A DNA stretch of 64,000 bases from an uncultured Candidatus Saccharibacteria bacterium (lineage in GTDB: Bacteria; Patescibacteriota; JABMPQ01; JAQVVF01). Shown here one piece after another: positions 4,687-64,000 of this stretch. The notes beneath the pieces are model-generated. The model was given only the letters and a program-made list of their open reading frames with translations. It was not told the DNA's origin and made no database searches. Numbering within the stretch: position 1 is the stretch's first letter; every line of letters starts with the position of its first letter. The DNA is taken from assembly GCA_964574655.1 (NCBI GenBank), contig CAZNOH010000001.1:201852-265851 (forward strand), written 5' to 3'. Made by a program: the position numbers and the translations under genes.

Positions 4687-4692
4687 ATATTT

Positions 4693-9260: not shown

Positions 9261-10979
9261 ATGCAAGGGATAACAGGACAACAGCATAGCTCTAATGAAC
9301 AAGAAAATTTTGGAAGAAGCTTGGAAAGAGAATATTTGGAACAAGGTTTGTATTGGGGTAGGATTGGTAGTAAGCCAAAAGATTATACTGCGCGGATTGG
9401 AATGGAAACTTATCCATTGAGTGGAAGCGAGGTTGAAACTTTGAGAAGACTGGGAATTTTAATTCCTAGATTTTTAGAAGGATGTGTTGATTTAGCGAGA
9501 AGATCTGTGTCTGGTGAATATCCATGGCTCTGGCAGGATTTGTGTTTTGGGAGATCGGATTTGCAAATTGCTATTTGGAAAAGAGAGCTTGAAAGAAAAG
9601 ATATCGTGTTGGCAAAGAGAGTAAGAATCGATGCGATTCGCACTGACAAAGGCTTGAGAATTAATGAGTTTACTTTAGGAGCGACTGGATCTGGATATAG
9701 CGGCTTAATTGATCTGATTTCTCGTAAGTTTTTTACGGGAAAGAATTTTTTTGAACCAATTGCCAAAAAATATGTTGAGGCAATACATGATCTGTTGCCA
9801 AACGGTGGTTTTGTTGGTATTCTTTTGACTCCATGGCGAGAATTATATGGGCCGGAGCAGTTTGCTTTGACTGGCTTGCTAAATGAATTTGGGAAAATCT
9901 TTGGTCTAAAATTTGCATTTGCATTTACTTATGAGGCTGAAGCAAGAGAAGGTGGCGTGTATTTGAGAGGCGAAAAATTGGATTTGATTGAAAGAGTTTT
10001 TAAAGAGTATACAGAAATTGATAAATTGATCTTGAATAGACTGGTAGGGCTTGCTGCAAAAATTGAGAAGCAGATTATTGATGCATATTTTGAAGGAAAG
10101 GTATTGTTGCATCCAAATCTTTTGACTTTTCTTGATTATAAAGAGTTGATGGCTTGGTTGTTTGACGAAGAGTTAGAATCAGAATGGAGAAAATATTTGA
10201 CAGACGACATGTTTGAGGAACTGAAAAATATTTTTGCTTACACAATTATTTTTAGGCCAGGTAGTTTTGTTTGGAAAGGCAAGAAATATGAAGAATCAGC
10301 CATGAGAGATTTAGAAAGCCAAATAGTGAAAAACATGGAATTTGAATTTGAAGGTAAAAGATTGATGCTGTTTTGTAATAATGGAGTGCAAACAAATGTT
10401 TGGACTGGTGAAAGTCTTATCGATGGTTTGGGAAATCTTGATGTGATAATTGATTGGCTAAATAAGATTGAATGTGGGAGCTATACTTGTCCAAAACAAA
10501 TAGCAGATCAAATTACTTTTTTTGCTAAGTCAGACCGTTTAATTATGATTGAAAAAGAAAGTGGGAGATGGAAGTTGAAGATCGTACAAGTTAAGAATGT
10601 TTTGTACTCTGATATTGTTTTGAAATTGTCTGGTGGAGATAACCAAGCAGCAGGTGGACACGGGATTGCTATTAGTAGATTGATGCCAAGAAAAATATGG
10701 AGTCGACATGTTAGTAATTTTTTGAAGCTAGCTCAAGTAAGAACTGTTGTTGCTCAAGAATATTGTGAGATGGCAGTTGATGAGATGATGGTCTTTGATC
10801 CAGTGACCAAAAAAGTGAGTAAAGAAAATGTAAGAACAAGAATTTGTGTTTGGTACTGGCTTGATAATGATGCGAGCAATTCTAGTTTTGGAGGAAATAC
10901 GGTAACTTGCATTCCAATCTCTGACGGCTATATTGTGCATGGCCGGTCTAATTCGGCGATGACGGCTTGTTCTTTTTAA
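9261..10979 (+). CDS. Hypothetical 572-aa protein (possible ATP-dependent ligase-like enzyme; not recognisable from sequence alone)
   Basis: Long ORF with an SD (aagggagaaaaggaa) 6 nt upstream. I chose 9261 over the ORF-track start at 9162, which lies inside the repeat element. GC is higher than in its neighbours. Confidence 0.5.
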   Translation: MQGITGQQHSSNEQENFGRSLEREYLEQGLYWGRIGSKPKDYTARIGMETYPLSGSEVETLRRLGILIPRFLEGCVDLARRSVSGEYPWLWQDLCFGRSDLQIAIWKRELERKDIVLAKRVRIDAIRTDKGLRINEFTLGATGSGYSGLIDLISRKFFTGKNFFEPIAKKYVEAIHDLLPNGGFVGILLTPWRELYGPEQFALTGLLNEFGKIFGLKFAFAFTYEAEAREGGVYLRGEKLDLIERVFKEYTEIDKLILNRLVGLAAKIEKQIIDAYFEGKVLLHPNLLTFLDYKELMAWLFDEELESEWRKYLTDDMFEELKNIFAYTIIFRPGSFVWKGKKYEESAMRDLESQIVKNMEFEFEGKRLMLFCNNGVQTNVWTGESLIDGLGNLDVIIDWLNKIECGSYTCPKQIADQITFFAKSDRLIMIEKESGRWKLKIVQVKNVLYSDIVLKLSGGDNQAAGGHGIAISRLMPRKIWSRHVSNFLKLAQVRTVVAQEYCEMAVDEMMVFDPVTKKVSKENVRTRICVWYWLDNDASNSSFGGNTVTCIPISDGYIVHGRSNSAMTACSF

Positions 10980-42314: not shown

Positions 42315-42656
42315 ATGCGAGAAACAGCATGCAGGGTTATCAGGTCGTTGAAAGGAGATCTGTTTCTGTTTGTCGGAAAAATAAGGAAAACGGAAAGGCG
42401 TTGTCCAAAATGCGAGAAACAAGGAATGCCGGTTATTTTGCCTAATGGTAAAAAATATTGTTGTCTTTATTGCGGTTTCGAAATTGATGTTGATATTGCA
42501 AAAAAAATGTATGAGGTTTTGAGCAATTTTAATGGTGCTGATCCAAGGCAAATGAGTGAGGAAACAGCGGCGATAATCATTGCAATGGATCAAGTATTAA
42601 GCTGGTTCTTGCGTGGATATCGTTGGAACAATTATAATCCGAATGACTTGCGTTGA
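42315..42656 (+). CDS. Small zinc-ribbon protein (CPKC..CxxxC) of unknown function, inserted between secY and adk
   Basis: Strong SD caaaggaggagaag. GC is higher than in its neighbours. Four Cys sit in CxxC-like spacing. Confidence 0.45.
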   Translation: MRETACRVIRSLKGDLFLFVGKIRKTERRCPKCEKQGMPVILPNGKKYCCLYCGFEIDVDIAKKMYEVLSNFNGADPRQMSEETAAIIIAMDQVLSWFLRGYRWNNYNPNDLR

Positions 42657-42665
42657 TCTTTCAAA

Positions 42666-42689
42666 AGAAGGCTAAAGCCTTCTTTTTTC
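42666..42689 (+). terminator. Intrinsic terminator
   Basis: agaaggct-aaa-gccttct stem followed by a T6 run. Confidence 0.6.
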
Positions 42690-49678: not shown

Positions 49679-49781
49679 ATATTTGGGATATTACTGATAT
49701 TAAGATATTCGGAAATTATTACCCAACTTTAGTTGGGGTTCGGTAAGCTTTAGTTTGCAGATATTTTAAGTAGTAAAAAAT

Positions 49782-50156
49782 ATGAATATCGAAAAAAAAG
49801 GGAAAGAATTATATAGCCAATATGAAACTACAAGAAGAATGATGGAGTCATCCAAATTTTATGCTGACGTATATAATCAATGGAAAGGTTGTACAGGTTT
49901 TGGCGGTAGAACGAAAGATTGGGTTCAAGAACTAAAGCCGATGACACAATATGAAGAAAGAATTAGAGCTACAGCTGATCAGGAAGAAGCACAAATAATT
50001 CTTGATTTAAGCGATCCAGAAAGGGTTGTAGCTTATAATCAACTCGTTGATGAATTTAATGCTGACTTAGAAAGGATTCGAGAAACTAAAGATCAAAAAG
50101 CAGCCCAAGATTATATGTCTAAAGCAATAGCTATAATTTATAATCAATCAAAGTAA
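49782..50156 (+). CDS. Hypothetical protein
   Basis: 124-aa ORF. Confidence 0.35.
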   Translation: MNIEKKGKELYSQYETTRRMMESSKFYADVYNQWKGCTGFGGRTKDWVQELKPMTQYEERIRATADQEEAQIILDLSDPERVVAYNQLVDEFNADLERIRETKDQKAAQDYMSKAIAIIYNQSK

Positions 50157-50196
50157 AAGTATTTGCGATTGCCTTTAATCAAAAGTATTAGAAAAT

Positions 50197-50288
50197 TCTA
50201 CCTGGCTTTAGCCAAGGGGTTGGAGAGCCTTAGCTCTCATTTCTTGTGAACTAAAGTTCATGAACCCCTTGGCTAAAGCCAGGTAGAA
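50197..50288 (+). repeat. 92-nt three-hairpin palindromic element, copy 1 (ncRNA or MITE-like candidate)
   Basis: A perfect 26-bp outer inverted repeat (ttctacctggctttagccaaggggtt / aaccccttggctaaagccaggtagaa) encloses two inner hairpins, gagagc-ctta-gctctc and tgaact-aa-agttca. Confidence 0.6.
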
Positions 50289-50303
50289 ATATCTGAATTT
50301 AGT

Positions 50304-52411: not shown

Positions 52412-53695
52412 ATGTGTTTAACAATGCCTGGAAAAGTAAGTAAAATTAATGGAAACTTTGCGATAGTTGAGGGAAATTTTGGATTGAGAAGTGTCAATAT
52501 TATGGCATTAGGAAAAATTAAGATTGGTGATTGGCTTTTGGCGACAACTGGTTTAGCTGTTAAAAAAATTAATGAAAACGAGGCGCAGGAATTAATTGAT
52601 TTATTGAAAAGTCATGATGCGGTTGACAGCAACAAGATAGATAAAAAATTATTGAATGTTTTAGAAAATGCAAGAAAAAGGAATTTGAATAGAGACGAGA
52701 TTGTTTTTTTATTAAGTTTAAAAAAAAAGAAAGATATTGAGGCTTTGTTTTCAGAAGCTGATGTGATTAGAAAAAGTTATTTAAAAGATTTTATATGCAT
52801 TCATGGCATAATTGAATTTTCAAATTATTGTGAGAATAATTGTTCATATTGCGGATTGAGATTTGAAAATAAGAAATTAAAAAGATACAGAATGTCTTTT
52901 AAGGAGATTGTTGAAGTAATTGATGAAGCAGTAAATAAAATAGGTTATAAAATGTTGGTATTGCAGAGCGGAGTTGATAAAGGATGGAGCGATGCGAAAT
53001 TAATTGAATTAATAAAATTGATTAAAAAAAAGCATCGAGTTTTTATTCTGATAAGTATTGGTGAACGGAGTTTGGAATGTTATAGAAAGATGAAAAAAGC
53101 AGGAGCTGATGGAGTTTTGTTTAGATTTGAGACAGCAAATAAAGATCTTTATCACAAATTGCATTTATCTAAGACATTGAAAGGCAATTTTAAGAAGCGA
53201 TTAAAATTAATTGGTGAATTAAAGAAAATGGGTTATTATATTTCTTCAGGGTCAATGATTGGATTACCTGGTCAAACAATTGGTGATTTGGCAAACGATG
53301 TTTTAATGATGAAAAAGTTGAAAGTAGGAATGGTCTCAATGGGTCCCTTTGTCCCATGTAAAAATACTCCATTTGAGAAAGAAAAAAAAGCTGAAACGAT
53401 GTTGAGTTTGAAAATGATAGCTATTTGTCGTATTTTAATGAAAGAAGCAAGGATACCAATTACTTCTGCTTTAGAGACAATTGGAGGCGAAGAGATTAGG
53501 AAAAAAGGATTGAGCTGTGGTGCGAATTCATTGATGTTCAATCTAACACCGCAAAAATATAGAAAAGATTATAAAATTTACAATAACAAATTTTATGGGA
53601 GAAACAAGAAATTAGAGAGAGCAGCTTTATTTCAGAATGAAGATAGCTGGAGGATGATCGAGCAAGAGTTTAGAAAAAAAATAGATAAATTTTGA
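52412..53695 (+). CDS. Fusion protein: N-terminal HypC/HupF-type [NiFe]-hydrogenase chaperone domain (about 75 aa) plus a radical-SAM HydE [FeFe]-hydrogenase maturase
   Basis: Starts MCLTMPGKV..GDWLL..G.A..KINENEA (the HypC signature with Cys2). The rest aligns along its length with HydE: IIEFSNYCENNCSYCGLR, KRYRM, LQSG, ETAN, GSMIGLPGQT, MGPFVP, CGANS. Confidence 0.7.
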   Translation: MCLTMPGKVSKINGNFAIVEGNFGLRSVNIMALGKIKIGDWLLATTGLAVKKINENEAQELIDLLKSHDAVDSNKIDKKLLNVLENARKRNLNRDEIVFLLSLKKKKDIEALFSEADVIRKSYLKDFICIHGIIEFSNYCENNCSYCGLRFENKKLKRYRMSFKEIVEVIDEAVNKIGYKMLVLQSGVDKGWSDAKLIELIKLIKKKHRVFILISIGERSLECYRKMKKAGADGVLFRFETANKDLYHKLHLSKTLKGNFKKRLKLIGELKKMGYYISSGSMIGLPGQTIGDLANDVLMMKKLKVGMVSMGPFVPCKNTPFEKEKKAETMLSLKMIAICRILMKEARIPITSALETIGGEEIRKKGLSCGANSLMFNLTPQKYRKDYKIYNNKFYGRNKKLERAALFQNEDSWRMIEQEFRKKIDKF

Positions 53696-63867: not shown

Positions 63868-63957
63868 TTCTACCTGGCTTTAGCCAAGGGGTTTGAAAGC
63901 TTTAGCTTTCGTACCTGGAGCTAAAGCTCCACAACCCTTCAGCTAAAGCTGAGTAGA
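63868..63957 (+). repeat. 92-nt three-hairpin element, copy 2
   Basis: Its 5' outer arm is identical (26/26) to 50197-50222, and its 3' arm is diverged. The inner hairpins are gaaagc-ttta-gctttc and ggagc-taaa-gctcc: different sequences but the same structure as in copy 1. Confidence 0.6.
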
Positions 63958-64000
63958 AATTTGTAAATAATTTTATGAAAGAACAATTTGGTGAAAAAAT

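Follow-up and report, generated by a model that had tools for sequence, protein, structure and literature searches.

Inverted GTAG-tagged hairpin modules form a family of possibly REP-like intergenic elements in a Candidatus Saccharibacteria genome and other bacterial lineages

Results

Repeat copies at the FBA/hydrogenase and PduL loci

The window analyzed here is a 64,000-nt stretch of a contig from an uncultured Candidatus Saccharibacteria bacterium. It has a GC content of 32% and a strong, uniform GC skew (0.17–0.45 in each 2-kb interval of positions 1–64,000), and its long open reading frames (ORFs) are nearly all on the + strand. The segment between the FBA gene and a hydrogenase Fer4_22 gene contains a degenerate copy of a hairpin-rich repeat, an orphan 124-aa ORF and a full copy of the same repeat (copy 1), and a second full copy (copy 2) follows the PduL gene (Table 1). 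This amounts to three copies per 64 kb. The 124-aa ORF is either an accessory cargo or a neighbor and lies outside the repeat proper.

An initial annotation, made from the nucleotide sequence alone, had described a two-copy element at these positions, and the repeat proved to be real: three occurrences of a 24-nt arm were counted in the window, with 0 expected, and both copies fold far better than shuffled sequences, with z-scores of −11.8 and −10.9 for copy 1 (+ and − strand, respectively) and of −6.6 and −7.6 for copy 2. The limits first given were near-exact, copy 1 starting one base earlier (50196) and copy 2 ending at 63958. As previously described, copy 1 contains a perfect 26-nt inverted repeat (TTCTACCTGGCTTTAGCCAAGGGGTT / AACCCCTTGGCTAAAGCCAGGTAGAA), and copy 2 has a 5' arm identical to that of copy 1 at 26/26 positions (TTCTACCTGGCTTTAGCCAAGGGGTT) together with a diverged 3' arm (AACCCTTCAGCTAAAGCTGAGTAGAA). 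The outer arm is a small hairpin in its own right (tggc-TTTA-gcca), as is the diverged 3' arm of copy 2 (tcagc-TAAA-gctga). Each copy consists of four hairpins with a ~22-nt period, with the loops TTTA, TTTA/CTTA, TAAA and TAAA in this order and the bounds TTCTAC ... GTAGAA. Regarding the inner hairpins, gagagc-ctta-gctctc of copy 1 and gaaagc-ttta-gctttc of copy 2 stood as first drawn, whereas the second hairpin of copy 1, originally given as tgaact-aa-agttca, would need an impossible 2-nt loop and is properly tgaac-taaa-gttca, and the second hairpin of copy 2 could be extended to tggagc-taaa-gctcca. The inner hairpins of copy 2 are wholly unlike those of copy 1 in sequence.

A further core of the repeat had been placed near position 49732. 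No exact GCTTTAGC is found there, but the region contains two CTTTAG hairpins (cores at ~49727 and ~49748) that are part of a two-hairpin variant, the third copy in the window. Across the window, GCTTTAGC occurs 12 times against 2.3 expected, with 6 of the 12 occurrences inside copies 1 and 2. A covariance-model search with a model of the outer unit (R1) gave five units in the window, including one in the variant copy (49714–49744, − strand, 20.7 bits, E 0.0012), and three in the related contig L076. The sequence of copy 2 recurs unchanged in two independent Logan assemblies (L063 and L064). It is therefore not an assembly duplication, an origin that the initial annotation had considered; contig L063 ends exactly within the element.

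Table 1. Position of the repeat copies, their hairpin modules and adjoining features in the window.
Feature	Position	Strand	Description
Insertion at the FBA/hydrogenase Fer4_22 junction	49679–50303		~625 bp; same junction ~20 nt in syntenic relatives
Third copy (degenerate two-hairpin variant)	49716–49775		TTATTAC-ccaaCTTTAGttgg-GGTT, gtaagCTTTAGtttgc, GTAGTA
Orphan 124-aa ORF	49782–50156	+	Between variant copy and copy 1
Copy 1	50196–50288		93 nt, TTCTAC...GTAGAA, four hairpin modules
Copy 1, left outer unit	50196–50221	−	Reads AACCCC-TTGG-CTAAAG-CCAG-GTAGAA; R1 match 50193–50223, 41.9 bits
Copy 1, inner hairpin gagagc-ctta-gctctc	50223–50238		
Copy 1, inner hairpin tgaac-taaa-gttca	50247–50260		
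Copy 1, right outer unit	50263–50288	+	AACCCCTTGGCTAAAGCCAGGTAGAA; R1 match 50261–50291, 42.1 bits
Copy 2	63868–63958		91 nt; begins 1 nt past the PduL stop codon
Copy 2, module U1	63868–63893		
Copy 2, module U2	63895–63910		
Copy 2, module U3	63916–63931		
Copy 2, module U4	63933–63958		

A family with fixed loops and tags and freely varying stems

Relatives were sought by scanning species-representative genomes with a single arm pattern in which the stem positions were left free. The matches were mostly due to chance, and two related elements were retrieved, one from an unclassified MAG (L008) and one from a Zixiibacteriota MAG (L019). A similar scan of metagenome contigs gave 38 loci, ~14 of which have clear relatives, on contigs of 31–52% GC. 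The family shares the design TTCTAC-C-NNN-CTTTAG-N'N'N'-A-GGGG ... CCCC-T-NNN-CTAAAG-N'N'N'-G-GTAGAA, in which two end modules of ~28 nt face each other with GTAGAA outward, at a spacing of 7 to ~95 nt. Read outward, each end module follows the pattern 5'-AACCCC-T-NNN-C-TAAA-G-N'N'N'-G-GTAGAA-3', with an invariant loop, C/G tract and GTAG(AA) tag and with three inner stem pairs that vary freely while staying complementary. In L033, L038, L054, L060, L008 and L037 the GTAG(AA) tag is found on partner arms outside the search pattern, and since the pattern did not demand that these arms end in GTAGAA, the termini are truly conserved.

In most cases the interior of the elements holds one to three additional hairpins, which share the C-TTTA-G / C-TAAA-G loop; the overall number ranges from zero to three or more. 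Specifically, the interior of L008 is 7 nt long with no inner hairpin, that of L055 has one, and that of L037 consists of ~95 nt of other hairpins. Two inner hairpins are the usual arrangement, as seen in L033, L038, L054, L060, L019 and copies 1 and 2 of the window. In the eight full elements, each of the 16 inner hairpins has a fully paired stem of 4 bp or more, with many sequences and one common loop. Units can also occur back to back, as in L034 (GTAGAATTCTAC) and L019, or in tandem, as in L038.

Some of the contigs carrying the element have other repeats of their own. L038, a 9.6-kb contig encoding MreCD, PBP2, MinCDE and other housekeeping proteins, has terminal inverted repeats (1–184 / 9430–9613) of 184 nt that are 97% complementary, with an element in each; these ends may reflect either a fold-back of the assembly at the repeat or a genuine inverted duplication. 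The intergenic regions of the same contig are full of heptanucleotide tandem repeats of a cyanobacterium-like kind. Unrelated hairpin repeats lie beside the element on higher-GC contigs (L019 1–140 and 3270–3300; L055 3360–3420; L037 1400–1490), and belong to the families ccgtcagaNNNNNNNtctgacgg and ctgtcagggctccYgccctga.

Covariation in the local hairpins and strand symmetry

Covariation was assessed in an alignment of 35 outer units in the outward-reading orientation, compared with 500 shuffles. In the 6-bp local hairpin, 93.8% of cells were paired against 73.9% in shuffles, and the covariation score was 0.650 against 0.262, with 47 cells changed on both sides and none of the 500 shuffles reaching the observed score; slid controls collapsed. 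The claim that the hairpins are kept through compensatory change is thereby borne out. The same was observed for the two outer local hairpins in the eight full elements, with a score of 0.628 against 0.238 (0/500 shuffles).

The three-way architecture proposed in the initial annotation is, on the other hand, not what the family conserves. Across the eight full elements, the long 26-bp outer stem shows no covariation, with a score of 0.128 against 0.118 in shuffles that was reached by 148 of 500; its variable columns are unpaired in four to seven of the eight elements, and the stem is perfect only in copy 1 of the window. The minimum free energy (MFE) fold of copy 2 is moreover one long hairpin, at −44.5 kcal/mol for the bare element and −47.8 kcal/mol with flanks (same fold), while the four local hairpins sum to about −30 kcal/mol in either copy. 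Preserved pairing with sequence turnover is a property of four independent hairpins and not of a three-way junction.

The element reads alike on both strands, being mirror-symmetric. On the outward (TAAA) strand, the outer units show 24 G.T wobbles against only 3 A.C cells, and therefore, on any one strand, one of the outer hairpins has the wobble and the other a C.A mismatch. In the full-element alignment, helix 1 is accordingly unpaired in six of eight cells at the wobble/mismatch position. This mirror asymmetry of the ends fits a use at the DNA level, with each end on its own strand, rather than a single transcript.

Genomic placement and turnover of the element

All of the ~23 elements examined are intergenic, and their neighbors are unrelated housekeeping genes with no common gene context. 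In CPR loci, the element end lies 10–20 nt ahead of the next start codon. The copy 1 site was compared across six fully syntenic loci from four genome sources, with 83–86% FBA identity. At each of them (L067, L068–L070 and L071–L072), the junction between the FBA and hydrogenase Fer4_22 genes measures ~20 nt, so that the much longer segment in the window, comprising the variant copy, the 124-aa ORF and copy 1, is an insertion. Searching ~80 kb of the relatives' syntenic DNA with the unit model R1 yielded nothing at E ≤ 0.1. A homologue of the two-hairpin variant is found in L068–L070 at another junction (L068 14740–14800), which is empty in the window and in L067. An AT-rich motif, GATATTCGGAAATT, stands ahead of the two-hairpin variant in the window (49704–49717) and in L068–L070 (L068 14726–14800), and also occurs without hairpins in L076/L077 (L076 3968–3981), amid low-complexity intergenic DNA of the gatatt/ggaaatt/agaaatt kind.

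At the copy 2 site, relatives with 85–86% PduL identity have no element, and different genes follow PduL. In L076/L077 (81% PduL identity), an element is present right after PduL with every stem changed and the loops kept, and it precedes a 232-aa ORF family without Pfam match, as it does in the window. Members of this ORF family (MKEQFGE..., MHEQIGE...) occupy positions 4689–5839 of L076 and 63975–64000 of the window. L076 contains two tandem 232-aa-ORF paralogues, each preceded by ...GTAGAA, 16 nt and ATG; the gene duplication thus included part of the element.

The ttc/gaa flanks of the two copies had been suggested to be target-site duplications (TSDs), but these letters belong to the conserved inverted termini TTCTAC/GTAGAA, at whose ends they lie, and do not form a direct repeat. 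In 12 full elements searched for TSDs, no direct repeat was present at the boundaries of eight, and the others showed repeats of 2–3 nt in AT-rich flanks.

Two other sites in the window also differ from the relatives. A 113-aa ORF (42315–42688) lies between secY and adk and shows a weak Pfam match to a Cas12f1-like TNB zinc ribbon that falls below the cut-off (21.2 against 26.3 bits, E 3e-4). The same spot contains nothing in L067 and an NTP_transf_2/HEPN pair in L068, and given this differing content it is an insertion hot spot. Downstream of the 113-aa ORF stands a classic terminator, GAAGGC-TAAA-GCCTTC-TTTTTT, which likewise has a CTAAAG loop. A 427-aa ORF (52412–53695) carries a HupF/HypC domain at its N-terminus together with radical-SAM and BATS domains, and its position in syntenic relatives is taken by a stand-alone HypC of 66–94 aa followed by other genes.

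Searches for known families, signals and a mobilizing enzyme

Rfam searches of the window and four loci at gathering and permissive thresholds returned sub-threshold chance matches only, those at the elements being generic miRNA-like hairpins. Two pattern scans of 2.9 million viral contigs gave two chance matches and then none, and a BLAST search of plasmids with the L038 element, a method poorly suited to short variable hairpins, gave no match. Literature searches by sequence string returned noise only.

No match to E. coli RayT was obtained by tblastn in 596 kb that included ~10% of the source genome, and a Pfam scan of 10 small unknown ORFs of the window revealed no Y1_Tnp domain. As candidates for a mobilizing enzyme, the 124-aa and 232-aa ORFs were set aside, being without Pfam, PHROG or PDB similarity; the 124-aa ORF has one homologue, 40% identical, with no element near it. 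A DDE transposase located by the L037 element was rejected as a parent because its terminal inverted repeats (TIRs) are unrelated, and no parent insertion sequence (IS) sharing the element termini was seen.

A reading of the element as a terminator or promoter was also rejected, no consistent signal being present and promoter-like matches occurring at chance level. The sole match to the intrinsic terminator consensus is the copy 1 inner hairpin at 50223–50238 (tail ATTTCTTG); copy 2 has no such match, and neither outer hairpin is followed by one, the tails there reading GTAGAAAT... The 28-nt unit, a hairpin with a ...GAAA tail, recalls a CRISPR repeat, but the units are inverted rather than direct, number only two tagged units per element, are not arrayed, and have stems that differ within one genome. 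Archaeal ORB or iteron-like dsDNA sites, which the 21–22-bp spacing brings to mind, were discarded because the variable positions are bound to be complementary.

Discussion

The copies in the window most plausibly belong to a family of GTAG-tagged, non-autonomous elements of the REP/BIME/REPIN-like kind that is dispersed across phyla and is moved via DNA hairpins by an enzyme acting in trans, a reading to which we assign a probability of about 0.55. The modules would form short hairpins while the DNA is transiently single-stranded, with one end per strand, and would be recognized by a trans-acting nuclease or transposase specific for both structure and tag. By analogy, this enzyme could be of the HUH/Y1 type, such as RAYT, and it would move or replace the segment without duplicating the target. 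Copies located inside operons are probably co-transcribed. In the mRNA they would then make stable hairpins between cistrons, 10–20 nt ahead of the following start codon, and may influence message stability or translation as a side effect.

This REP-like reading follows from the anatomy and behavior of the elements, which match those of published GTAG REPs, described as having alternative complementary stems, G-T pairs, clusters and dimers with GTAG outside, spaced 20–100 bp (PMC3733652, Di Nocera et al. 2013). Like GTAG REPs and BIMEs, the elements consist of short extragenic hairpin units with GTAG at the foot of the stem, fall into sub-families with alternative complementary stem residues and contain G-T pairs; they form inverted dimers with GTAG outward, tens of bp apart, are grouped or in tandem, lack a TSD and are patchily distributed among related genomes. 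The covariation of the local hairpins, the assembly break of L063 within an element, the clustering of units, the lack of a TSD and the stem turnover at the PduL site further support this reading. REPINs are inverted REP doublets that act as non-autonomous mobile DNA (PMC3116915, Bertels & Rainey 2011); inverted doublets are present here as well, but their two arms show no co-evolution that would preserve a long hairpin. The tag is 3' in the present family (hairpin-GTAGAA), unlike in E. coli, where REPs beside rayT read 5'-GTAG-hairpin, and described REPs have neither the invariant C-TAAA-G loop and CCCC tract nor the untagged inner hairpins. The hosts differ too, as the list of phyla with GTAG REPs (PMC3733652) includes neither Patescibacteria nor Zixiibacteriota, and no literature linking REP/REPIN-type repeats to Patescibacteria was found. 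On account of the 3' tag, the arms that do not co-evolve, the lack of a RAYT match in the 596 kb searched, the fixed tetraloop and the inner hairpins without a tag, the family is filed here as REP-like in kind and outside the RAYT/REPIN family.

Other modular repeats share parts of this organization. The BOX element of Streptococcus pneumoniae has the structure boxA-boxB(n)-boxC, with modules conserved in sequence, and is limited to one genus. The present elements resemble BOX in having conserved end modules, a variable number of internal hairpins, an intergenic location and stable folds; the two have no sequence relation, and BOX has sequence-conserved modules in place of the free stems and fixed loop seen here. 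In Nostoc, the SDR repeats reported by Elhai and colleagues in 2008 are said to be mobile hairpin-forming units of ~21–27 nt that are intergenic and often nested. By this description SDRs resemble the present family, and one element-bearing contig (L038) has heptamer repeats of a cyanobacterium-like kind. Cyanobacterial SDRs, or the families GTAG-12, -15 and -16, may already include this element family.

The conservation of structure under sequence turnover had been taken in the initial annotation as the signature of a functional RNA. In such a scenario the repeats would be cis-acting structured RNAs, serving as intercistronic modules of stability, processing or translation with protein-bound C-UUUA-G / C-UAAA-G loops, and would persist by function. 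The strong compensatory change in the stems with G.U pairs, the very stable folds and the constant distance to the next ATG in CPR loci, which selection on RNA could equally explain, are all in keeping with this, and the best support comes from the PduL-site element, retained at 81% PduL identity with loops kept and stems changed, a turnover that selection on RNA could likewise account for. The turnover argument nevertheless fails as a signature, as the element is mirror-symmetric with a C.A mismatch in one outer hairpin on any strand, varies in module number from zero to three or more inner hairpins, has unrelated neighbors, and is missing at the corresponding operon junctions of close relatives. 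In addition, there is no Rfam match, even below threshold, beyond generic miRNA-like hairpins, and no consistent terminator or promoter signal. We therefore consider a structured RNA unlikely as the primary explanation; an RNA role is possible but secondary, and could coexist with the DNA reading.

An attC-like recombination site for small accessory-gene cassettes, at which a recombinase acting on folded hairpins would insert ORF-plus-site units, appears quite improbable. Both window copies do adjoin ORFs without Pfam match that are absent from close relatives (the 124-aa ORF, and the 232-aa family after copy 2), the 124-aa ORF lies between the variant copy and copy 1, and each of the tandem paralogues in L076 has ...GTAGAA in front of it. 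As with integron attC, function by a single-strand fold would be involved and small accessory ORFs are adjacent, and the stem of copy 1 has a branched top, as large attC sites do. The termini TTCTACC / GGTAGAA, however, agree with the attC cores RYYYAAC / GTTRRRY at only 5/7 positions each and lack the AAC/GTT crossover triplet. One long bulged hairpin is not kept by the family, elements elsewhere mostly flank housekeeping genes without a cassette, neither a cassette array nor an integrase gene was seen, and no element lies near the 124-aa ORF homologue.

Least probable is a conventional MITE, that is, a deletion derivative of an IS with a DDE transposase, recognized through double-stranded TIRs: the MITE-like alternative offered in the initial annotation came close to the mark in view of the conserved inverted termini, small size, variable interior and insertion polymorphism among relatives, but no TSD accompanies the 12 elements, complementary variable positions within each terminus have no reason in a dsDNA binding site, the lone DDE IS seen nearby (L037) has unrelated TIRs, and the viral contigs gave no match.

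A further reading is conceivable, although we hold it to be doubtful, in which a hitherto undescribed cross-phylum hairpin element would have its own mobilizing enzyme, other than a canonical RAYT. The ends would then be read as 3'-terminal DNA hairpins by means of the invariant C-TAAA-G loop and GTAGAA, and the element would mark, and perhaps mediate, the insertion of small accessory ORFs between conserved operon genes of streamlined CPR genomes.

At a practical level, these elements break short-read assemblies, as in L063, and can pass for structured RNA genes. The recognition code is unusually clean, with a fixed loop and tag and free stems, making a cognate protein easy to test once found. 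Patescibacteria genomes are tiny and tightly packed, and here a hairpin family is gained and lost among genomes whose proteins are 81–86% identical, with fixed motifs that are common to Patescibacteria, Zixiibacteriota and other lineages. This gain and loss, together with motifs shared across lineages, points to an unrecognized mobilization system, with the repeat or its enzyme spreading horizontally.
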